A DNA stretch of 32,000 nt from Pseudomonas sp. FeN3W (GTDB lineage: Bacteria; Pseudomonadota; Gammaproteobacteria; Pseudomonadales; Pseudomonadaceae), in the NCBI GenBank assembly GCA_030263805.2, contig CP136011.1:349934-381933 (forward strand), in the 5' to 3' direction. Positions within the stretch are counted from its first letter, which is position 1, and each line of letters opens with the position of its first letter. Below are positions 4-17,504 of the stretch, one piece after another. The translations under genes were made by a program, and so were the position numbers. The notes beneath the pieces were generated by a model that was given only the letters and a program-made list of their open reading frames with translations, had not been told where the DNA came from and made no database searches.

Positions 4-543
4 TCAGCAGGGAGAGGGAGTATGAGGATACTGGCCTTGGTCGCTAGATGAAATGAGACTGATGTTATTCTCAAGAACGTAATTACGTATCGTGGTGGCA
101 TCTTGAACTGGGTGATGAGTTAGCTTATTTGACTCCACCCAGTTTTCGTACTCCTCTTTTTCTTTCGTAGATAATACGTCTAAAAGAGTCTTTATTGAGA
201 AAGCCATCTTCACACCACTGTCATCGAACAGCTTCTTTATCCAGTACGAATCCCACCTGCTGTCTGAATAAATTGACTTCCCCTTGAAAACAGCATTCAT
301 TTCTCTCGCCACCAAGAAGGCGTCACGACCCTGCTGGGTCAACTGCTCCCTGTCGATCCCATGAATGGCTTCAGCAAAGCTGTCCCACTCATCCCAGTCT
401 TCGAGTGGGCAGATCATCCAGTACCACACCTGCCCGTCCGGGCCGCTGACGCCTATCGAAATCGGATAGCTGTGCTCACTAAGGCCGCTTGACTCACAGT
501 CTAGGATCAGCAGGTCATTGGAATCTTTCATTAGGCGTCTCAC
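4..543 (-). CDS. DEDDh-type (DnaQ/RNase T-like) 3'-5' exonuclease
   Basis: 179-aa ORF. Exo I DxE in LILDCESSG, an Exo II-like Asp in YSDSRWD, and Exo III H-x4-D in THHPVQDA. Start is GTG at 543 or ATG at 531; stop TGA at 4-6. Confidence 0.7.
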   Translation of the reverse strand: MRRLMKDSNDLLILDCESSGLSEHSYPISIGVSGPDGQVWYWMICPLEDWDEWDSFAEAIHGIDREQLTQQGRDAFLVAREMNAVFKGKSIYSDSRWDSYWIKKLFDDSGVKMAFSIKTLLDVLSTKEKEEYENWVESNKLTHHPVQDATTIRNYVLENNISLISSSDQGQYPHTPSPC

Positions 544-655
544 AACATTGAATAGGCTTACCCGAGAGGATAACGCAAAAAATTCAAAATTTCTAATCCA
601 TCCAGGTTTATTGACGCGTATACTGATGACAGGTCACCCAGTTTGGAGTGAGTTT

Positions 656-3310
656 ATGCGTGCGTACTCAACATTTACATCCGATGATCTGCTGTCAGGC
701 CACAATGACTTACACCCGAAATTGCTCCAGGACGCTAGACGCCTGGCACTCCACTCCCAGCTTGCTTGCTGGACGTCGACAGATCTTCTCAGGGAGTTGA
801 TATCCATCCGAGGTAAATTAACTTTAAACAGGTCGCTTGATAAAAAATGGCCGTTTGAAATCGTCAATGGTCGCGTCATACGCGATCTTACTGAAACGCA
901 AGCATACAACGCGCTTATAACCGGTGACCTTGAGTCCTCACTCCAGGCCATTCCTGCTGCTCTACAAAACGGCATTAGGCTTTCCAGGCTGATAGAAGCG
1001 CAGAGGGCCAAAGGAATAGGAGTCTATTTCAAGACTACACTAAAACTAAGGACACAGTGGTATCACGATTACCAATACCATGATCAACTCGCGGCGGAAG
1101 CTATGCTCGCCTGGATAGGAATGTCCAGTTGTAGCATTAAACAGTTATTGACTAGCGAAAGCCTTTCGCGTGATGAAATCATTCTTTTGGAGATAGTCAA
1201 AGGCCACCGAAAGACAATAGCAAGCAAGGTTTTTATAAAGGGCGTTGAATCAACAATAAGGCATATTCCTCGCTCTTTCATCTTGAGTCCCGACTTCGCT
1301 TTTACTCTTATTCCGGCAAGCTCGGACGGATTCACCACAACCACTGAGTATTTCTCAGCGATAGACGCTGAGTTTCAGAAGATAATTGATACAAGCATGG
1401 AAATCACTGAGCCACTCCTATCCATGATCCCTGATCATACGAGGCTCTTGCTCATGAGCGACATCAATACATATGAAGCCGTTATGCATTTCAAAGACAA
1501 TGTAACGCTAGCGCTCAACAGGCACACATATGCTGAGTCATGCCAATTAGTCCTGGATGTGGCTGGTGAAAAAGTAGAGATCATTTGCCCTTTATCATTG
1601 CCCAGCAATATAGTTTTAACCAGTGAGATGTATGAGTCCCTCTGCGTTAGAGCGCGCAATAGCATGGAAGAATCTTTCAATAACTTAAAGAAAATAGCCG
1701 GATCATTTGATCTTGGGCTAATAGAAAAGCCATTTTTACTAAAGCTTTTGCGAATGAAGAATCGTCAAATGAAAAAGTCATTCTTTCCAATCATGGAAAA
1801 AATAAAAGGATCAATCGCCATGGCAGACATACTAGAGTCTGATCCAAGATTTACGCATTATCATGATCTTTATCCCGCAAGAAATATCAATCGCCAATGG
1901 ATTGCCTACCTTGGCCCAACAAACAGTGGGAAAACACATAGCAGCATGAATGAAATGGCTGCTGCTGAAAACGGAATATACCTATCGCCCTTAAGGCTCA
2001 TGGCCTTAGAAAATCAAGAAAGACTTGAGCAATCTGGCATACCTTGCTCGCTCGTAACCGGTGAGGAGCAGATTATAAGGGAAGGGGCATCACATTACTG
2101 CTGCACTGTTGAAGAATTTGCACGCTTCAAAAATCGAAAATGGGACGTGGTTGTGGTAGATGAAGTGCAAATGCTCTGCGACCAACAGCGAGGGTGGGCG
2201 TGGACGGACGCATTAGTGAGTGCGCAAACACCAAGGTTGATAGTGACAGGCCCTGGCGCTATAGAGCCAACAATAAGAAGCCTTGCGCAGATCTGTGGTG
2301 ATGAGGTAGACGTCCTACTGAAAGATCGCCTGACAGATCTACAGATAGCTTCAGGGCCTGAAAAAATAGAGACCATAAGGGCCGGATCAATTATTGTCGC
2401 TTTCAGCAGAAAGACCGTTCTGGATATCAAGCGCATGCTCGACGCGAAAGGCAGATCCACAGCGGTGGTCTATGGCGCGCTGTCTCCTATGGTCAGAAAA
2501 GAGCAGGCCAGATTATTTCGTGAGGGGGAAGCAGAAATTATGATTGCCACAGATGCCATCGGCATGGGGCTCAATTTGCCTGCCCATTCTGTTTATTTTT
2601 ACGCTGACTCCAAGTTTGATGGGCAGTCTGTTCGCCCACTAACAAGCCAGGAGGTTAAGCAGATTGGGGGAAGGGCGGGTCGCTATGGGCTTTCAGAATC
2701 AGGAACAATAGGCGCCTTTACTTCTGAAGCTTTATCCAGCATCAGGAGCAGATTCAAACAAATTGACAGGCCCGTAGATCTTCAAAAATTCCAAGTCCGT
2801 CCTACACTTGCTCATCTATCCACACTGTCTGAAGTACTTGGCGAAAAAAGCCTTCTTAAGGTCTGGTTAAGCTTCATCAAGACAGTCAATTATGGAGAAG
2901 CATTTCGCGCAGTCCTGCCAACTGAACTCATGGAGTGGATAAGGCAGATTGACAATTGCGAAATAGATCTTGAACTACGGTGGATTTTTGCATGTGCTCC
3001 GGTGCATGGAGGGCTGGACGGTTACGCTAGTCAGTGGTTACAGGAGTGGTTGCGGTGCCTTCATAAGTCAAAGCCAATCACCTTGCCCATGTATTCACCT
3101 CAGCCTGGCCTCAAAGGCTATGAAGACGCTTTGCACATGATTGATGCATACCTTCATCTCGCCAGAGTTCTACCCGATCAATTCTTTCAAGCAGCCGATG
3201 CAGAAGCCCTGAAAACTACAATGAATGACAAAATGATCGACGCACTATCGACGCGTCGACGAAACAGCAAAACAAAGCCAAGCGCTGAGTCGACTACAAT
3301 GCAATGCTAG
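656..3310 (+). CDS. Suv3-like superfamily-2 RNA/DNA helicase with a ~410-aa N-terminal region of unknown function
   Basis: The C-terminal half carries the Suv3 motif series: GPTNSGKTH (Walker A, nt ~1913), SPLRLMALE, LVTGEE, VVVDEVQM, RGWAWTDAL, IVAFSRK, VVYGALSP, ATDAIGMGLNLP, QIGGRAGR. The ORF is open from 518 (TTG), which overlaps the exonuclease gene. I prefer ATG 656, which has GGAG 7 nt upstream. ATG 626 is an alternative without an SD. Confidence 0.85.
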   Translation: MRAYSTFTSDDLLSGHNDLHPKLLQDARRLALHSQLACWTSTDLLRELISIRGKLTLNRSLDKKWPFEIVNGRVIRDLTETQAYNALITGDLESSLQAIPAALQNGIRLSRLIEAQRAKGIGVYFKTTLKLRTQWYHDYQYHDQLAAEAMLAWIGMSSCSIKQLLTSESLSRDEIILLEIVKGHRKTIASKVFIKGVESTIRHIPRSFILSPDFAFTLIPASSDGFTTTTEYFSAIDAEFQKIIDTSMEITEPLLSMIPDHTRLLLMSDINTYEAVMHFKDNVTLALNRHTYAESCQLVLDVAGEKVEIICPLSLPSNIVLTSEMYESLCVRARNSMEESFNNLKKIAGSFDLGLIEKPFLLKLLRMKNRQMKKSFFPIMEKIKGSIAMADILESDPRFTHYHDLYPARNINRQWIAYLGPTNSGKTHSSMNEMAAAENGIYLSPLRLMALENQERLEQSGIPCSLVTGEEQIIREGASHYCCTVEEFARFKNRKWDVVVVDEVQMLCDQQRGWAWTDALVSAQTPRLIVTGPGAIEPTIRSLAQICGDEVDVLLKDRLTDLQIASGPEKIETIRAGSIIVAFSRKTVLDIKRMLDAKGRSTAVVYGALSPMVRKEQARLFREGEAEIMIATDAIGMGLNLPAHSVYFYADSKFDGQSVRPLTSQEVKQIGGRAGRYGLSESGTIGAFTSEALSSIRSRFKQIDRPVDLQKFQVRPTLAHLSTLSEVLGEKSLLKVWLSFIKTVNYGEAFRAVLPTELMEWIRQIDNCEIDLELRWIFACAPVHGGLDGYASQWLQEWLRCLHKSKPITLPMYSPQPGLKGYEDALHMIDAYLHLARVLPDQFFQAADAEALKTTMNDKMIDALSTRRRNSKTKPSAESTTMQC

Positions 3311-7077: not shown

Positions 7078-7728
7078 ATGGCAGTGGACATCACGAAGCG
7101 CGAAACGCCCGCTCAGGGAAAAAGCGTCATCAACCTCGATAAGCGCGGCTCGACCCTATCTCTCGATAAGAAAACGGGGTTCGACAAAATTGTTGTGAAT
7201 CTCAACTGGAACCAGGGCAAGCCGCAGAAAGTGGGCTTTCTAAAGTCGCTATTTGGCGGAGAATCCAAAACCGGCGTTGATCTTGATCTAGGATGCCTAT
7301 TTGAGCTCAAAAATGGGCAAAAAGGCTGCGTGCAGGCGCTTGGTAACGCCTTCGGTGACTACCGTAATGCCCCTTACATCCACCTGCTTGGCGACGACAG
7401 GACAGGAGCCAACCAGAATGGCGAATTCATGTGGATCAACGGCGCCTTTTTCAGCCAAATAAAGCGGATCGTTATCTATGCCTTCATTTATGAGGGCGTC
7501 GCCAGCTGGGGTGAGACGGATGGTGTTATTACCGTTCAAACACCTGGGCATGACACGATTCAGGTTGCGATGGATTCAAATGCCGATCTCCCGCTTTGTG
7601 CAATTGCCATGATTGAAAATGATCATGACAATCTTAAAATCACCAAGCTGGTAGAGTTTTTCAGTGATCAGGAAAAGCTCGATATCGCCTATGGATGGAA
7701 CATGAATTGGTCGGTAGGATCCAAGTGA
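7078..7728 (+). CDS. TerD-domain paralog with a degenerate metal-binding motif
   Basis: INLDKRGSTLSLDK and VDLDLGCLF mirror the TerD N-terminal strands. GDDRTGANQNGE occupies the position of the GDNxTGxGxGDDE motif but has lost several acidic residues. RIVIYAFIY matches the TerD core strand. Confidence 0.8.
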   Translation: MAVDITKRETPAQGKSVINLDKRGSTLSLDKKTGFDKIVVNLNWNQGKPQKVGFLKSLFGGESKTGVDLDLGCLFELKNGQKGCVQALGNAFGDYRNAPYIHLLGDDRTGANQNGEFMWINGAFFSQIKRIVIYAFIYEGVASWGETDGVITVQTPGHDTIQVAMDSNADLPLCAIAMIENDHDNLKITKLVEFFSDQEKLDIAYGWNMNWSVGSK

Positions 7729-7740
7729 CTGAATGAAGGA

Positions 7741-7778
7741 GAAGGCCCTGGGGCAACCTGGGCCTTCGCCATCGTTTT
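7741..7778 (+). terminator. rho-independent terminator after the TerD paralog
   Basis: GAAGGCCC (7741-7748) pairs with GGGCCTTC (7760-7767). A TTTT run follows at 7775-7778, slightly distal. Confidence 0.6.
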
Positions 7779-7846
7779 GTAGCAGCCTCATGAGATTGTG
7801 TTGCGCTTCAGTTTGAAGGGTATTGCAAGGCTACGTTCATTTTTGT

Positions 7847-7866
7847 AATATCTATATTGACAGGAT
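7847..7866 (+). promoter_or_regulatory. composite motif site: AATATCTATATTG + TATATTGACA + ATTGACAGGAT, upstream of hsp20
   Basis: AATATCTATATTGACAGGAT ends 45 nt before ATG 7912. It shares a 13-mer with 15441-15453, a 10-mer with 18164-18173 and 31754-31763(rc), and a 12-mer with 28624-28635. Confidence 0.45.
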
Positions 7867-7911
7867 CATTCGATCTGTCTAACAACACGTCGCTCAACGA
7901 GGACACAATCC

Positions 7912-8361
7912 ATGAGACAACATTATCTGTACATCAATTTCAGCGATCTATTCAACAGCCTTGCCGAAATTGCCAACCCCAAAAAAGCTTTTGGCTTTCC
8001 CCCAACTGACATTATCAAGCTGACAGAGACTCAGTATCAGATCCAGGTCGCTTTAGCTGGCTATCGCAACGAGAATGTTACGGTTACCTTTGAGCCATGC
8101 GGCGCCCGTAGCCATGAAGGCCAGCTTGTTGGTGATAGGAACCTTCTTCGGATCGAAGGAAACTTTCCCAAGCCGGAAGGTGATTCAGGAATGGTGACCT
8201 ATATTCAGCGCAACATTGCCCGACGTAACTTCAAACATGCGATTGCGCTAGATCGTCATATTGAAGTTGAAAGCGCAAAACTTGAACATGGATTGCTAAC
8301 CATCGATCTTAAGCTTGTTGTGCCGGACGAGCACAAGCCGCAAACAATAAAGATCAATTGA
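7912..8361 (+). CDS. small heat-shock protein, Hsp20/alpha-crystallin family (IbpA/IbpB-like)
   Basis: YQIQVALAGYRNENVTVTFE ... LLRIEG ... YIQRNIARRNFKHAIAL ... AKLEHGLLTIDLKLVVPDEHKPQTIKIN matches the IbpA layout. GAGGA RBS upstream. Confidence 0.9.
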   Translation: MRQHYLYINFSDLFNSLAEIANPKKAFGFPPTDIIKLTETQYQIQVALAGYRNENVTVTFEPCGARSHEGQLVGDRNLLRIEGNFPKPEGDSGMVTYIQRNIARRNFKHAIALDRHIEVESAKLEHGLLTIDLKLVVPDEHKPQTIKIN

Positions 8362-8365
8362 GTCA

Positions 8366-8393
8366 AAAGAGCCGGTCGAAGACCGGCTTTTTG
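8366..8393 (+). terminator. rho-independent terminator after hsp20
   Basis: AGCCGGTC (8370-8377), GAA loop, GACCGGCT (8381-8388), followed by TTTT. Confidence 0.85.
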
Positions 8394-8429
8394 TATAACA
8401 ATGTTCATCACAGCATCAGGTGTTATTAA

Positions 8430-9281
8430 TTGCAGAACTACATAAATGGCTTGCAATACATCCCAGCAAGTCTAACGAAGAAAGACATTCAAGAGATTGC
8501 GTGCCCTTCTTACGAACGATTGATCATTGATCCCGAACACCCCTCTTATCGTGATGCGTGTGAGCATTTTTCACAAACTAAGTATAAATATCCATATTTA
8601 CCACTTTATCTTGGGAATCATGACATACCAAATGTAGAGAAAATCGACTTGAACGTCTTGCGCCTTTTGATAAGAATGAATAATTCAGAGGCGTCTATTT
8701 ATTTACCAATGCAACTTCTTCCTTTGAAAGAACTCATTCTTTGCACAATTAATTACCATCGCCAAGCGTATTCAGCAAACAAGGATTGCTTTGTTTATTT
8801 AACTGTTAGGGCATGCACGTTTGAACAACTCTATTACAAGAACTCAATGGGTTGGCACATTGATGGTTTCCAGGGATCCAGAATTGAACGTCACATTATT
8901 GAGCAAGACGCTTTCTGGTGTAACTTATCAGCAACACAATTCCTATTGCAGCCAATGTTTTGTGAAGGCTTGAACCCAACAAAGCACGATATCAACATGT
9001 TCTTTGATAATCAGGCAGATAGTCGATTCATGGTTCAATCCCTCGAAAAATCGATATACCTTGCAACACCATACAATATCCATAGAGTGAATCCCAATCC
9101 GTTTGATGGCAAAAGAGTTTTTGTAAGAATTAACTTTTCCCCTGTATTGATAGAAGATCACACAAACACCTTCAATCCTGAATTTCCAGAGTACAAATTC
9201 AAACCCAGGGTTGATGTCAGGGATTTTTTATGGCAATACAATGCCTGCGAAGTTAGCGACTCCGGGTTTATCTTTGCCTGA
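8430..9281 (+). CDS. hypothetical protein; candidate double-stranded beta-helix 2OG-Fe(II) oxygenase
   Basis: 283-aa ORF in a markedly AT-rich block. It has an HxD in GWHIDGF, a distal His in PYNIHRV ~70 residues later, and RVFVRINFS ~14 residues after that, which is the AlkB-like HxD...H...R spacing. There is no in-frame ATG near the 5' end; TTG at 8430 or 8451 are the only early starts. Confidence 0.5.
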   Translation: MQNYINGLQYIPASLTKKDIQEIACPSYERLIIDPEHPSYRDACEHFSQTKYKYPYLPLYLGNHDIPNVEKIDLNVLRLLIRMNNSEASIYLPMQLLPLKELILCTINYHRQAYSANKDCFVYLTVRACTFEQLYYKNSMGWHIDGFQGSRIERHIIEQDAFWCNLSATQFLLQPMFCEGLNPTKHDINMFFDNQADSRFMVQSLEKSIYLATPYNIHRVNPNPFDGKRVFVRINFSPVLIEDHTNTFNPEFPEYKFKPRVDVRDFLWQYNACEVSDSGFIFA

Positions 9282-9363
9282 CCTACATGATGAAATGGAT
9301 TAACATGCAGTTTTTGAGTTAAACTGAAAAAATAAACGACCAAAACTGAGTTTTTCAATCGTC

Positions 9364-10251
9364 ATGACCAAGACAACAATCCTTTACCATGCCAACTGTT
9401 TTGATGGCACGTTCTCAGCAGCAGTAGCCAAAGAGCATTTTGGGGATTCGGCAACCTACGTGCCCGTAAGCTATGATAAGCCTCTTACTGACTTTTCTAA
9501 TCAGCGTCTGTTTTTCCTTGATGTCGTCTACAAGGAAAAAGATATGCAATTACTTTTGGGCAAGGGCAATGAGATTCATGTCATTGATCACCATCGAGAC
9601 AATGTAAAACCCATCGCCCATCTTCCTTTGGCCTCTTTGAGGTACGATGCAAATGAATCCGGCGCCTCCTTGACTTTCAAGCACCTGAATCCAGGAAAAG
9701 AGCTGCCGCTTGCCATTGCACATGCCAGAGATTATGACCTTTGGCGCTTTGAATTGACGGGAACCCGCCACTTTGTGGCGAATCAGGCGACTCCCCCCCT
9801 CGAAGTAGACAGCTACCGCGAACTGCTCAGGCTTGAGGGCCGAGATTATGAGCAATTCGTTGAAGCTGGCAAGGGAATACTGGCGTATAAGAACAAACTA
9901 GTCGAAGAAATTTCCGCAAGTGCAATAAATATCAAACTCAAAGGCATCGAGGGATGGATGGTCAATGGGCCAGCAGAACTCAGAAGCGAAATTGGCAATT
10001 ATCTATCAATAAAGCATAAAGCAGCTTTCGCCCTGATTTGGAGTGAGCGCTCTGACGGGAAGATCAAAGTATCATTGAGGTCAAGCGAAGGAGATGCGCC
10101 TCTCCAGATTGCGAAAGCGCTTGGAGGTGGCGGCCATGACCGGGCAGCCAGTGCCGTCATGGAAAAATCAAAGTTCAATAGACTGGCTAGTTCAGCAAAA
10201 AAATCTGTGCAAGCGCGATCCCTGTCAGACTCCTGCTGCGATCATCATTAA
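9364..10251 (+). CDS. DHH/DHHA1-family phosphoesterase (NrnA/RecJ-like fold)
   Basis: Motif I HANCFDG, motif II FFLDV, motif III VIDHHRDN, and the DHHA1 motif GGGGHDRAAS near the C-terminus. Confidence 0.8.
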   Translation: MTKTTILYHANCFDGTFSAAVAKEHFGDSATYVPVSYDKPLTDFSNQRLFFLDVVYKEKDMQLLLGKGNEIHVIDHHRDNVKPIAHLPLASLRYDANESGASLTFKHLNPGKELPLAIAHARDYDLWRFELTGTRHFVANQATPPLEVDSYRELLRLEGRDYEQFVEAGKGILAYKNKLVEEISASAINIKLKGIEGWMVNGPAELRSEIGNYLSIKHKAAFALIWSERSDGKIKVSLRSSEGDAPLQIAKALGGGGHDRAASAVMEKSKFNRLASSAKKSVQARSLSDSCCDHH

Positions 10252-10276: not shown

Positions 10277-10316
10277 TAATTCATATCACACTTCGAAAAC
10301 AACCGCTTTAAACAAC

Positions 10317-10333
10317 CTATCCAAACCTACTCA
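10317..10333. repeat. inverted repeat, tnpB-side end of the IS (CTATCCAAACCTACTCA)
   Basis: 16/17 match to the reverse complement of 12736-12752, including a perfect 13-nt core CCAAACCTACTCA. Confidence 0.6.
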
Positions 10334-10370
10334 CGCAGTTTGAACAGTGTTTAAAACCTCAAAGTCGCCC

Positions 10371-12038
10371 TTAAAAGGGCACATCTTCGAGGCCGTCACT
10401 CCCGCAGTGAGGGTGACTCGCGTGACGGGGTCTCACCGTCAACGTCCGGGTAGGGCTCAGTGAATGGGCCAGGCCTTTGCGTGTTGCCACGCATTGCTTG
10501 GCCGAAATCACAGGCGCAGGGGATTGTTTATGATCCCCAGACCGCACGTGCGCTGCATGCGCCGCTGACAGGTTTTTCCTCACGCCCGCCCAGAATGACC
10601 ATACATGCTTCGCCCGATTCCTTGCAGGTAGGGCAAAGGTGACATGGCCACCCCCGCGTGTGGGTGCAACACCCGCTCGCGTGGACAGACGTTCGGAAAA
10701 ACCCAATCCACGTCGGGCGATGGCCGTGGCCGCGCCCTGGTGGACAGAAATGCCTCGGACACTGGCGTGATTCACCGCGCCAATCACCGAGGTGTAGGCC
10801 GGGTTGACGTCAATGACTTCTACTCCGGCCCTGAAACAGGCGCTGCGTAACGCAGCCCCCACCTGTGCGTAAAAGAACCCAGAGAGCAGGCGTGCTGCCT
10901 TCGGATTCATCATGGTTAAATCGGATTTCTTCTGACGAAAATCCAGCTTTTCCAACACCAGTGGCTTGCCAGCGGCGGCGCACTGCGCCGCCACAGCCTT
11001 GGCCAGATCACCTATTTTGGCCTTGGCCTGATCGGTGGATAGACCATAGGTGGCGCATTGCAGGCGTTGGGTATTGGTCAAATTACCAAAACGATCCAGC
11101 TCGGCCAACGCCAGGTGATCGGCATTCAGATCGAGGCCAAAGGCACCAAGCCCGCGTTTCGTGACTATCGGGACATCGTCGTGCTGGGTCGAGACAAAGA
11201 CGCGCCAGCCCTGATCGTCTCGGATAAAGCGATAGCTCAGCGCTCGCCCTGCTACCAGGGAATTCAAAATGGATGGGTGGCCATAGGCAAACTGGACATC
11301 GGTCAGTGTGATGTATTTGCCCAGCGCTTCTGGCAAGCGCACCCTGAGCCTCAGGCGCTGATCAGCCTGCACAGTCGCCACGCAGCTCTGGCAGCCTGCG
11401 GTTTCATCCTTGGAGCCGACCAGGAAGAACTGATCACTGCGGCTGGTTTGCCAATCCTTTTTCCAGTCAGCGTGCGTCAATTGTGCATCATTGAATTGGC
11501 TGCGAAAACGCTTGCGAGAGCCAAAGCATAAACGGACTTTGCCGCAGGCTTTCTCAGTAATCATGCGTTCCAGGCGCGCCTGCTGGCGCGCCAGGCTGCG
11601 TTTCTTTTGATGCAGTGAGAACGCTAACTTATCGATCTTGACTGGATCGACAGTTGTCATTTTCTTTTTGGGTTTGCGCAGCACCTTAAGTTCTTTGTCC
11701 AGGCGCACAAGGGTTGAGGTCAGTCGCTTAATCTTGCCCTGAGCCTCATGAATGAGGTCACCCTGACGGGACTTAATCGACTCAATCTTGCCTTCCAAGA
11801 GCATGCGGATGGCATTGAAATGCCGGGCGGTGATGCCGTAGTCAGCAATAAACCTGGATTTTAGTTGGGCAATAGAAACCACTTCATCCTTGCGGTGGCA
11901 AGCGGCAAGCGAAGTGTTCTTCACCATAGCGGCAAACAACTTGCGCTCCAGTTGCCCGTATTGCTTCGCATAGGCATTTAAGGCAGCGTCTTGCGCAGCC
12001 TCTAGTACTAAGCGAGTTTGATAGGTGAAGACGGGCAA
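10371..12038 (-). CDS. tnpB: TnpB-like (OrfB) protein, atypically long and lacking the zinc-ribbon
   Basis: RuvC-I-like FGLDLNADHLA, RuvC-II-like LVLEKLDF, and NPAYTSVIG in place of the usual ..YTSQxCxxCG. No CxxC pairs follow, and SVHQGAATAIARRG sits where DxNAAxNI is expected. A long charged, coiled-coil-like insertion lies near residues 80-170. Confidence 0.85.
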   Translation of the reverse strand: MPVFTYQTRLVLEAAQDAALNAYAKQYGQLERKLFAAMVKNTSLAACHRKDEVVSIAQLKSRFIADYGITARHFNAIRMLLEGKIESIKSRQGDLIHEAQGKIKRLTSTLVRLDKELKVLRKPKKKMTTVDPVKIDKLAFSLHQKKRSLARQQARLERMITEKACGKVRLCFGSRKRFRSQFNDAQLTHADWKKDWQTSRSDQFFLVGSKDETAGCQSCVATVQADQRLRLRVRLPEALGKYITLTDVQFAYGHPSILNSLVAGRALSYRFIRDDQGWRVFVSTQHDDVPIVTKRGLGAFGLDLNADHLALAELDRFGNLTNTQRLQCATYGLSTDQAKAKIGDLAKAVAAQCAAAGKPLVLEKLDFRQKKSDLTMMNPKAARLLSGFFYAQVGAALRSACFRAGVEVIDVNPAYTSVIGAVNHASVRGISVHQGAATAIARRGLGFSERLSTRAGVAPTRGGGHVTFALPARNRAKHVWSFWAGVRKNLSAAHAAHVRSGDHKQSPAPVISAKQCVATRKGLAHSLSPTRTLTVRPRHASHPHCGSDGLEDVPF

Positions 12039-12090
12039 GTGGGGTATTCCAAACTGAATGGCTTGATACTAATCAGATCTTCTATACGGG

Positions 12091-12699
12091 TCAAGCCGCT
12101 TGCTGCAAGTGTTTTAGGTTTTTCCGTGAACGCGAGCCATATAACCTGGCAGAAAACACCGTCATCAACTCGATAACGTCAGCAACAAGGCTGGTTTCCA
12201 GATTGGCCTCTACTGGTTGATCAACAATCACCACCTGTGTTTTATTCAACTTGCACAATTCAAAAATGATATCCGCACCAAACCTGAGCAAGCGGTCTTT
12301 GTGAAGTAGTACCAACGTTGATACCTGGCCTAGCGCAATCATCCGCAGTAGCTTGAGAAAGGCTTTCTTTTGATAGTTCAAGCCACTGCCCAAGTCGCTG
12401 AGTATTTCTACATCCCTGTGTCCAGCGCTGTGACAATACTGAATCAGCCTGTCTCGTTGTCGAACCAGGTCTTCCTTTTGATCATGGCTAGATACGCGAG
12501 CATAGCCCACCACCTTACGTTGTTCTGGACTGTGCCTGCCTATCAGCGCATGGAGATCATTCACAGCATAACGACGATGCTGACCACAGGTGCGAAAAGA
12601 GGGTCGCAAGCGGCCATCTTTTTCCCAACGGCGAAGTGTTGAAATGGATACGCCGAGTAATTCGCTGGCTTCGACTATTGATAAATGCTGCATGATCAT
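12091..12699 (-). CDS. tnpA: IS607-type serine recombinase transposase (MerR-like HTH + resolvase catalytic domain)
   Basis: LSIVEASELLGVSISTLRRWEKDGRL (HTH) followed by VGYARVSSHDQKEDLVRQ (catalytic Ser motif) and LVLLHKDRLLRFG. Confidence 0.9.
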   Translation of the reverse strand: MIMQHLSIVEASELLGVSISTLRRWEKDGRLRPSFRTCGQHRRYAVNDLHALIGRHSPEQRKVVGYARVSSHDQKEDLVRQRDRLIQYCHSAGHRDVEILSDLGSGLNYQKKAFLKLLRMIALGQVSTLVLLHKDRLLRFGADIIFELCKLNKTQVVIVDQPVEANLETSLVADVIELMTVFSARLYGSRSRKNLKHLQQAA

Positions 12700-12735
12700 G
12701 ACTCACTTGTTATTGTTTGGTCAGATTGTAACAAA

Positions 12736-12752
12736 TGAGTAGGTTTGGTTAG
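12736..12752. repeat. inverted repeat, tnpA-side end of the IS (TGAGTAGGTTTGGTTAG)
   Basis: Reverse complement matches 10317-10333 at 16/17 positions. Confidence 0.6.
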
Positions 12753-12771
12753 TTATTTATCTTGCAGTAGA

Positions 12772-12792
12772 AGCCCCGCCATTAGCGGGGCT
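12772..12792 (-). terminator. hairpin downstream of ligA (no U-tract)
   Basis: AGCCCCGC / GCGGGGCT 8-bp stem with a 5-nt loop, 5 nt after the ligA stop. No T-run follows on the minus strand, and the IS end lies 20 nt away. Confidence 0.4.
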
Positions 12793-12796
12793 GCCT

Positions 12797-14881
<2,085 letters not shown>

Positions 14882-16088: not shown

Positions 16089-16709
16089 TCACGATGGTCT
16101 GAATCCTTCGAGTATCTCTTCAAAATCGATTTGTTTTGGCTCATCATTCAGAAGTGCGTCAAGGACGTCTTGCGCGGCAAGCCAATTGTACTGAGGCCAC
16201 ATTTGCAGCCCTTTCTTTATGTATGCGGAGAAAGAGTTTGTGCGTTCTCGATAAATCCTTCTCGCCGCTTTGCCAACCCCTTCATTGTTAATGTGATGAA
16301 TGGCTTCCATGATGTCAGCAAGTTTGGTAATGATGCCTAGGTGCGTATCAGCCGTCTGATCCGCAAGATCTGCATACGGCTTACAGATTTTTCGCTCAAG
16401 CATTTCAATGGGAGACATTTGATCAGGAAATAGTGACTCAAGATATCGCTTGAGAGGTGTGCTCATGTCACCTGTTGAAACCTCGGCCATATCATGCCAG
16501 AGACACTTTCGTACCAGAAGCAACTGATCTTTCTCACTCATGTCTGGGTCGATCACTTTGGCCAAGTACTCTGCGTACATGGTTACTAGAAAGGAGTGTT
16601 CAGCAACGCTCGGATGACGCAAGCAGCGAACCGAATGCCAGCGTGTCACATTTGCTGCATGTGCAACGTTGGCTATGGAATAGTTTTCATTTTCAAGCTT
16701 CGAACTCAT
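16089..16709 (-). CDS. HD-domain phosphohydrolase, YfbR-like 5'-(deoxy)nucleotidase type
   Basis: RWHSVRCLRHPSVAEHSFLV and LWHDMAEVSTGDMSTPLK match the YfbR-type H...HD...D pattern. AAGGAG RBS 7 nt upstream of ATG 16709. Confidence 0.8.
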   Translation of the reverse strand: MSSKLENENYSIANVAHAANVTRWHSVRCLRHPSVAEHSFLVTMYAEYLAKVIDPDMSEKDQLLLVRKCLWHDMAEVSTGDMSTPLKRYLESLFPDQMSPIEMLERKICKPYADLADQTADTHLGIITKLADIMEAIHHINNEGVGKAARRIYRERTNSFSAYIKKGLQMWPQYNWLAAQDVLDALLNDEPKQIDFEEILEGFRPS

Positions 16710-16775
16710 GGCATCACTCCTTGGTGTCTATTCAGTTTAACGCACTTAACATGAAACATCCCGGACGGACTCAAA

Positions 16776-17504
16776 TCAAGCCTTTGAGCAAGCAAAAATG
16801 GCCAAATAAGGCTCTCTCGTGTTTGAGGTAGACAATATTTTAAGATAGGCAATTATAAGGAAAGGCCACATCAACAGAACCCCAGAGTCGAAATTCAGGC
16901 TAGTTACGACACAAAATAAACCGATACCCGAAACACCGATTAGCTTGAATGGCTCTTCAAAACCCTGAAGTTTGTGCAGATAGCTTCTTTGTTTCCAAAT
17001 TACTAGTGGAAATATTATCAAAGCTATCGAGACAATCAATGAATATTCTTCCGGCTGCACCCCACCCAAGGAAACCAATGGCATTATTCTTGCCAAATAG
17101 CATGCGGTTACACATAGTGCAGTGGATAATCCATAACCACACTGTTTTTTTATAATGAGGTTGTAAAAAAAATTAACACCCCAATAAAGTAAGACCCACC
17201 TGAAGGAAAATTCATGTGGCCATACAATCCAGGAAGTTAAAAAAAGTACAGGTAATAACACAATTGCGCGCTGAACACTTAATGCGCCGCTTGCTATGGG
17301 TCGATCCTTTCGATCTGATCTTAGCGCATCGTCTTTTCTATCCATAATGTCATTGAAGACATAAACCGCACTTGAAGCAAAACAAAATCCTATCACAAGA
17401 AGCAGGCTTGAAAGCGTCGGCGTAACTGTTGCTACAAGGAGAGCACTCAGGCACAGAAGGTTTTTGTACCACTGATGTATTCTTAGAACATCCAAGATAG
17501 CCAT
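16776..17504 (-). CDS. UbiA-superfamily polyprenyl-phosphate transferase, decaprenyl-phosphate phosphoribosyltransferase-like
   Basis: N-terminal RIHQWYKNLL, Asp-rich NDIMDRKDDALRSDRKDRPIASG, multiple TM helices, and KQRSYLHKL resembling the KRxxE region. At 242 aa it is shorter than typical family members. Its start lies 4 nt after the lipoprotein stop. Confidence 0.7.
   Translation of the reverse strand: MAILDVLRIHQWYKNLLCLSALLVATVTPTLSSLLLVIGFCFASSAVYVFNDIMDRKDDALRSDRKDRPIASGALSVQRAIVLLPVLFLTSWIVWPHEFSFRWVLLYWGVNFFYNLIIKKQCGYGLSTALCVTACYLARIMPLVSLGGVQPEEYSLIVSIALIIFPLVIWKQRSYLHKLQGFEEPFKLIGVSGIGLFCVVTSLNFDSGVLLMWPFLIIAYLKILSTSNTREPYLAIFACSKA

Follow-up and report, generated by a model that had tools for sequence, protein, structure and literature searches.

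The IS607-family element found in the window (the whole stretch of 32,000 nucleotides of Pseudomonas sp. FeN3W DNA that was analysed, contig CP136011.1, positions 349,934 to 381,933) carries a tnpB gene whose product lacks both the RuvC-III aspartate and the zinc ribbon of canonical TnpBs, and we asked whether such a protein is a damaged TnpB, an RNA-guided DNA binder or a nuclease with an altered active site. Profile searches bore out the first-pass annotation, made from the sequence alone, that an open reading frame of 555 aa on the minus strand (10371-12038) follows an IS607 transposase gene (NF033518, 194 bits). The features of the element are collected in Table 1.

Table 1. Features of the IS607-family element and its junctions, in window positions.
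Feature	Position	Strand	Basis
Whole IS607-family element with both GG core dinucleotides	10303..12775	minus	2471 bp inserted, no target duplication
tnpA, IS607 serine transposase	12091..12699	minus	NF033518 194 bits (cut-off 110); PF00239, PF00376
tnpB, very probably RIIIr-4 type, 555 aa	10371..12038	minus	ORF, family search, structure model (pLDDT 91)
Left end of element	12700..12773	minus	common to copy 2
Left junction: host G(G) + GG core, predicted TAM 5'-(R)GGG-3'	12774..12777	minus	family junctions; TAM role by analogy with CboTnpB
Host hairpin downstream of ligA, insertion target	12776..12796	minus	fold energies
Long basic antiparallel helical hairpin, REC lobe, aa 71-165	11544..11828	minus	model helices 71-121, 132-165
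RuvC-I Asp303	11130..11132	minus	kept in 146/147 relatives
RuvC-II Glu363	10950..10952	minus	kept in 144/145 relatives
RuvC-III His433, replacing Asp	10740..10742	minus	139/144 relatives; register from profile-profile alignment
Folded C-terminal extension aa 446-505, beta-hairpin + helix, predicted to be dual-coded with omegaRNA	10524..10703	minus	pLDDT >90; synonymous constraint
Disordered tail aa 511-555, predicted translated read-through of RNA helices	10374..10508	minus	pLDDT ~43-55
Predicted omegaRNA scaffold, ~380 nt, ends CGG	10303..10680	minus	synonymous constraint, covariation; 5' end inferred
Predicted omegaRNA helices	~10651-10595, 10565-10420, 10441-10423, 10417-10395	minus	RNAalifold covariation
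Predicted guide, host DNA just beyond right end	10283..10302	minus	conservation falls sharply after CGG
Terminator-like hairpin after guide	10277-10258	minus	

A canonical TnpB has a D-E-D triad and a zinc ribbon and scores at least 100 bits, the cut-off, against the model NF040570; the 555-aa protein, which starts with a TTG codon at the position used by its relatives, fails on these counts and scores 30.5 bits. Profile-profile alignment to the canonical TnpBs of the same plasmid (prob 93.9, E 1.5e-7) anchored the A-A-x-x-I-x-x-R-G helix, and counting back without gaps from this last RuvC helix, where hhalign itself placed a two-column gap, put H433 at the position of the RuvC-III Asp. The same alignment paired E363 with the canonical Glu at the canonical strand position, which rules out a Fanzor-like RIIr TnpB, whose RuvC-II Glu has been relocated to a position immediately ahead of the zinc finger. 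The RuvC-I and RuvC-II motifs are thus intact (D303, E363) and the RuvC-III Asp is missing, as had been read from the sequence, His occupying its place in nearly all relatives. The C4 zinc ribbon is absent after RuvC-II, and both the alignment and the structure model place a short helix there. The earlier statement that the protein has no Cys pairs holds for this region, not for the WED region far upstream, where the single CxxC of the protein, C216-x-x-C219, is found; in the wider family, Asn mostly takes the place of C216. Further conserved acids in the family alignment, candidates for an additional active-site acid, are E449, E212, D315 and D366.

The final AlphaFold model, built from an alignment of 129 sequences, reached a pLDDT of 91 and a pTM of 0.85; an earlier run with a shallow alignment had left aa 450-555 unresolved, a shortcoming that the deeper alignment mended. 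The best fold matches of the model were SpCas12f1, ISDra2 TnpB and Cas12k, with Z scores of 15-16, while a sequence search of the PDB gave no match and the ESM Atlas returned same-family clusters only. What had been taken for a large Lys/Arg/Glu-rich insertion is a hairpin of the REC lobe present across the family (median 83 aa) in which the tip alone varies. The segment is indeed charged (28% Lys+Arg in aa 88-165); with four Glu only, it is basic and not Glu-rich.

Family searches recovered at least 2549 homologues of similar length among the candidates scored, and 4202 clusters at 50% identity matched the TnpB family profile. Residue counts were taken from the best 150 of these 50%-identity cluster representatives, in which D303, E363 and H433 are conserved at 99%, 99% and 97%, respectively; the full D-E-H set is present in 134 of the 138 complete representatives at ~35-50% identity, compared with a mean column identity of 22%. 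A CxxC between RuvC-II and RuvC-III was found in one of 144 relatives only, and that one is apparently aberrant. The spacing between RuvC-I and RuvC-II is fixed at 60 aa across the family, versus 84 aa in a canonical plasmid TnpB and 68-69 in RuvC-II-rearranged TnpBs. The length of 555 aa, previously considered beyond the typical range, is normal for a family with a median of 521 aa. The gene body of tnpB is under strong purifying selection, the two plasmid copies differing by seven synonymous and three non-synonymous changes, an IS607 tnpA homologue adjoins 65 of 84 family loci, and related elements reach up to seven near-identical copies per genome. Since the D-E-H set is retained in 134 of 138 diverse relatives, H433 and the missing ribbon are not the result of damage, and none of the oddities of this TnpB (the His, the absent ribbon, the hairpin, the length) is private to this copy.

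These features agree with RIIIr-4, one of the five major TnpB clades, in which the RuvC-III Asp is changed to His and the C4 zinc finger is lost (Altae-Tran et al. 2023, PMC10691335); the same authors argue that this clade is active. In their tree of 6,931 sequences, RIIIr-4 stands beside five smaller RIIIr branches. The FeN3W protein shows the RuvC-III His and no C4 zinc finger together with a canonical RuvC-I Asp and RuvC-II Glu, and sequence comparison leaves little doubt that the element is an intact, recently transposed IS607 with a TnpB of clade RIIIr-4. The suggestion of a distinct TnpB lineage was correct as to distinctness; the lineage had already been named, and the clade with its His-type TnpB was described in 2023, so that the finding is not new in kind. 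A member labelled as RIIIr-4 is ortholog 39 from Nocardiopsis dassonvillei, of 529 aa (Nety et al. 2023, PMC10278001), which was compared by short motifs and through a proxy, the Streptomyces plasmid protein L095, rather than by direct alignment. The omegaRNA sequence of ortholog 39 translates to the same His motif and its right end matches that of the family. L095 has four diagnostic motifs and its right-end sequence in common with ortholog 39 and matches the family profile with 201 bits (E 1e-57; 30% identity over aa 145-453). In the tree it sits on a long branch and groups with the FeN3W protein, apart from the canonical TnpBs, at 100/100. Membership in the clade is thus well supported, though by an indirect route. 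A close relative, AP023179, is within the representative set of Nety et al., unlabelled as to clade. A TldR or another fully inactivated TnpB, in which the RuvC-I and RuvC-II residues and mobility are lost, was ruled out; D and E are conserved and the element is mobile.

TnpA consists of a MerR-type HTH and a resolvase domain, with the YARVSS motif intact at aa 66. A serine recombinase with an N-terminal HTH upstream of tnpB, a GG core, the absence of a target-site duplication and a precise empty site all identify the element as IS607. A second copy, 98.7% identical, is located on the same megaplasmid (C2:295563-298032), and comparison of the two fixed the ends. One contig of sequencing run X1 joins position 10302 to 12774, omitting 2471 bp, with two letters (GG) that fit both sides; run X8 gave the same empty-site joint shifted by 2-3 letters. 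Because both runs show the empty site and X1 has the element at the second site only, the window copy probably arose in a recent secondary transposition into the hairpin that follows ligA. At the empty site a longer hairpin followed by a T-run is restored (-27.3 versus -19.5 kcal/mol for the occupied junction). A search of 60 related genomes did not recover the element.

Distinct left junctions of the family carry G at -1 in 33 of 34 cases and a purine at -2 in 30 of 34; the right end terminates in CGG and the next base is T or C in all 76 distinct flanks. The target of these related elements accordingly reads 5'-(R)G-GG-Y-3', and a GGG TAM is predicted from it. As the right-end GG is always followed by a pyrimidine, the target looks like the left end of the element itself (GG-Y), and a scaffold delimited by conservation may include one base too many. 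An 8-nt insertion at the tnpA start of the window copy (~12699-12707), absent from copy 2 and from run X1, may alter tnpA translation. Two further IS607 elements with His-type TnpBs and similar ends, L002 (C2:116209-118317) and L003 (C2:812053-814242), encode TnpBs 32-34% identical and TnpAs 71-72% identical to those of the window element, which suggests that tnpB has been shuffled under related tnpA genes.

The window lies on a contig of 910 kb with 47.8% GC and 55 tRNA genes, alongside a chromosome of 5.0 Mb. Since the LigA of this plasmid is closest (53-54%) to the LigA proteins of three Pseudomonas megaplasmids of ~1 Mb, we infer that the host replicon is a megaplasmid of that general kind. 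The replicon (C2) is a TnpB hotspot: the genome has 14 NF040570 matches, of which all those listed lie on C2, and four His-type copies in addition, compared with 0-2 NF040570 matches in each of 36 genomes of the same genus; several of the C2 copies have Gly at RuvC-II. A repeat of ~247 nt (G000:C2:643170-643415), with at least six further copies on the plasmid that are 89-96% identical, is possibly a MITE or a non-coding RNA. Plasmid cargo around the element (window 518-3310, 7078-10251, 12797-14830 and 16089-17504) includes a Suv3-like helicase, a TerD-like protein, Hsp20, a DHH phosphoesterase, a NAD-dependent ligase, a YfbR-like HD protein and a UbiA-like protein, and several long ORFs around the element have no Pfam match. 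Just upstream of the window, a tandem tRNA cassette Asp-Glu-Arg (G000:C2:342796-343751) comprises four units, the last without Arg, with differing Arg anticodons.

The C-terminal part of the protein had been described as a low-complexity tail that may be read-through of the guide RNA region. This holds for aa 511-555, which are disordered and dispensable in many relatives, and by half for aa 446-505, which are folded, contain the conserved residues P471, R473, W480 and W483, and are constrained both as protein and as RNA. Identity at four-fold degenerate sites rises from 0.37 in codons 1-430 to 0.61 in codons 446-545 (p ~1e-15, each codon counted as a unit although related sequences are not independent), the synonymous constraint setting in at about codon 453-461. 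Codons 451-480 still show lower conservation at position 3 than at positions 1 and 2, while in codons 511-540 all three are about equally conserved. RNAalifold analysis of 25 loci placed helices within the coding sequence. For 37 chosen omegaRNA pairs, 96% of cells pair and 22 of the 37 show double-sided changes; none of 500 shuffles scored as high and slid controls dropped to 31-45%, although these controls are biased towards the structure, which comes from the same alignment. The folding z of the region is -4.95. Computationally, the right end specifies a structured RNA with a sharp boundary between scaffold and guide, and we predict from these sequence patterns and the model an omegaRNA whose 5' part also encodes the folded protein extension and whose 3' part is translated as read-through only.

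Rfam gave no match over the window, neither to a group I intron nor to a catalogued omegaRNA. No match to GGG plus a 10-nt seed of either guide was found in the genome, an uninformative outcome, and a promoter scan gave chance-level hits only. A 183-nt contig of run X18 lies inside the predicted omegaRNA (10438-10620) and another lies in a flanking gene, contigs that cannot show expression, and run X14 may be DNA, so that none of these runs is counted as evidence. An orphan piece of 128 nt (L004, G000:C2:644507-644634), 90% identical to window 10519-10646 and surrounded by no other element sequence, corresponds to the 5' part of the predicted omegaRNA only. A longer version of it (10481-10647) with similar flanks occurs in run X1, indicating that it is stable across strains; this piece may be a remnant or an ectopic capture during repair.

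These observations can be assembled into a working mechanism. The junctions show that transposition by TnpA proceeds through recombination at a GG core into 5'-(R)G-GG-Y-3' and leaves no target duplication, the empty site being the precise rejoined sequence. A transcript across tnpB and the right end is very likely cut to a long structured omegaRNA of ~380 nt; it shares its sequence with the last 100 codons, and its terminal CGG is followed by ~20 nt of guide taken from the host DNA. TnpB with this omegaRNA would recognise a 5'-GGG TAM beside the guide match, an arrangement expected at the empty site only, because the occupied right end reads CGG. The D303-E363-H433 metal site would then cut the DNA and repair from the sister copy would retain the element, as has been demonstrated for the IS607 CboTnpB. 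By conjecture, the RNA-DNA duplex is probably held by the basic REC hairpin, and the role of the lost zinc ribbon may have passed to the folded aa 446-505. To the main reading of TnpB as an RNA-guided homing nuclease with a D-E-H site, which retains the element by guided double-strand cleavage of the empty site, we assign a probability of roughly 0.55.

The conserved triad, the purifying selection and the association with tnpA count in favour of a homing nuclease, as do the near-identical copies within single genomes, the observed empty site, the CGG/GGG arrangement of the ends, the covarying omegaRNA and the case made by Altae-Tran et al. for activity of the clade. It is known that ortholog 39 has a clear omegaRNA processing site and that processing by AmaTnpB requires an intact RuvC (PMC10278001), and that His completes other active RNase H-fold sites, e.g. 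the DEDH of Argonaute (PMC10772731). On the other side, mobility of the element requires only TnpA, which counts against inferring TnpB activity from it, and ortholog 39 was scored 'N' in an in vitro TAM screen, without DNA cleavage (PMC10278001). This negative result is weak evidence and possibly a false negative, because 32 of the 59 orthologs in the screen failed, many of them canonical (PMC10278001), and because the 466-nt RNA used for ortholog 39, the longest omegaRNA of that survey (PMC10278001), has its start ~170 nt 5' of the His codon, far ahead of the constrained region. Ortholog 39 is the only RIIIr-4 ortholog for which a test was found in the literature searched, and later tests of a His-type TnpB were not found there, many subscription papers lying outside it.

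A decayed or mis-called TnpB, in which the zinc finger and the Asp were lost by local damage or frameshift and the tail is read-through, would fit the weak score against the canonical model and the low-confidence last 45 aa of the structure model; it is refuted by the number of homologues with the same motif throughout the clusters, by the agreement of start sites among relatives and by the conserved D-E-H set, and the frame is open in both plasmid copies and folds with high confidence in the model. A nuclease-dead RNA-guided DNA binder similar to TldR or Cas12m, which would block or steer some process at the empty site, e.g. by attracting TnpA or obstructing it, is improbable. Loss of the canonical third Asp, a large basic hairpin that could strengthen binding, the presence of Cas12k and Cas12m among the fold matches and the lack of cleavage in the sole test of a RIIIr-4 member speak for such a binder, but conservation of two catalytic acids and the His stays at 97-99% even among distant relatives, whereas fully inactivated branches change all three residues (PMC10691335). 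Moreover, the element has no partner gene apart from tnpA, and the fold scores of Cas12k and Cas12m are tied with or below those of active Cas12f and TnpB. Of the readings offered in the first-pass annotation, a rewired active site on an active IS is correct, like the distinct lineage, and nuclease inactivity is not favoured.

A more serious, if still tentative, alternative is that the D-E-H enzyme is competent with a changed substrate or outcome, processing its own omegaRNA and nicking DNA or cutting ssDNA or RNA without a double-strand break, the element being retained or spread by nick-stimulated recombination or another route. RIIIr-4 TnpBs would then not be ordinary double-strand homing nucleases; through the D-E-H site, the loss of the zinc module and the dual-coded segment that replaces it, they might instead be RNA-guided nickases or ssDNA/RNA-directed enzymes, with an omegaRNA of unusual length. 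The tested RIIIr-4 member processed RNA and gave no dsDNA TAM, and Nety et al. suggest other substrates for such cases (PMC10278001). The zinc/TNB module of canonical TnpBs is missing, the shortened spacing between RuvC-I and RuvC-II points in the same direction, and conservation of the triad is explained equally well. This alternative is weakened by the TAM-like asymmetry of GGG and CGG, which a homing enzyme that cuts DNA would require but which a preference of TnpA alone might also produce, and by the little weight that the negative TAM screen carries. The homing nuclease with a D-E-H site is the reading that we prefer.

RIIIr-4 has thousands of members and, among the literature searched, has been assayed once, with RNA processing and no DNA cleavage as the outcome. 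For a re-test this locus supplies an intact, recently mobile gammaproteobacterial element with exact ends and an observed empty site, a TAM prediction based on dozens of natural junctions and a boundary of the omegaRNA derived from synonymous-site constraint. Cutting by the D-E-H site, if true, would show that the TnpB/Cas12 lineage can use D-E-H catalysis; a nickase or a binder would revise the reason why IS607 keeps RIIIr-4 genes, and a nickase would in addition mean a different maintenance mechanism for IS607 and a natural compact nickase.

Comparison with known systems places the FeN3W TnpB closest to ortholog 39, with which it shares the RuvC-III His, the absence of a C4 zinc finger, a length of 520-555 aa, the PAYTS...S-x-H-x-A-A...RR motif, a right end GAACGG/AGCGG and a long omegaRNA overlapping the coding sequence; unlike ortholog 39, the FeN3W member retains IS607 tnpA and moved recently, and it belongs to a proteobacterial megaplasmid sub-branch ~30% identical to the tested actinobacterial one. 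With the canonical ISDra2 TnpB (8exa) and Cas12f (9i8y, 7wju) it shares the WED-REC-RuvC fold (Z 15-16 over ~300-325 residues) at 10-12% identity, whereas these have D-E-D and a zinc ribbon and the FeN3W TnpB has a longer REC hairpin, a shorter linker between RuvC-I and RuvC-II and an extra folded C-terminal segment. TldR, Cas12m and Cas12k, all nuclease-dead RNA-guided binders, have an altered RuvC in common with it, and Cas12k and Cas12m also the fold likeness, but the FeN3W TnpB strictly keeps D and E, and its element has tnpA and neither a CRISPR array nor a partner gene. In the IS607 CboIStron, TnpB needs a TGGG TAM and the CGG right end protects the occupied site (bioRxiv 10.1101/2023.11.20.567912); the FeN3W element resembles it in the serine TnpA, the GG core, the G-rich target, the scaffold ending in CGG and the retention logic, and differs in its His-type TnpB, in having no intron by Rfam and in a target that reads (R)GGG-Y and not TGGG.
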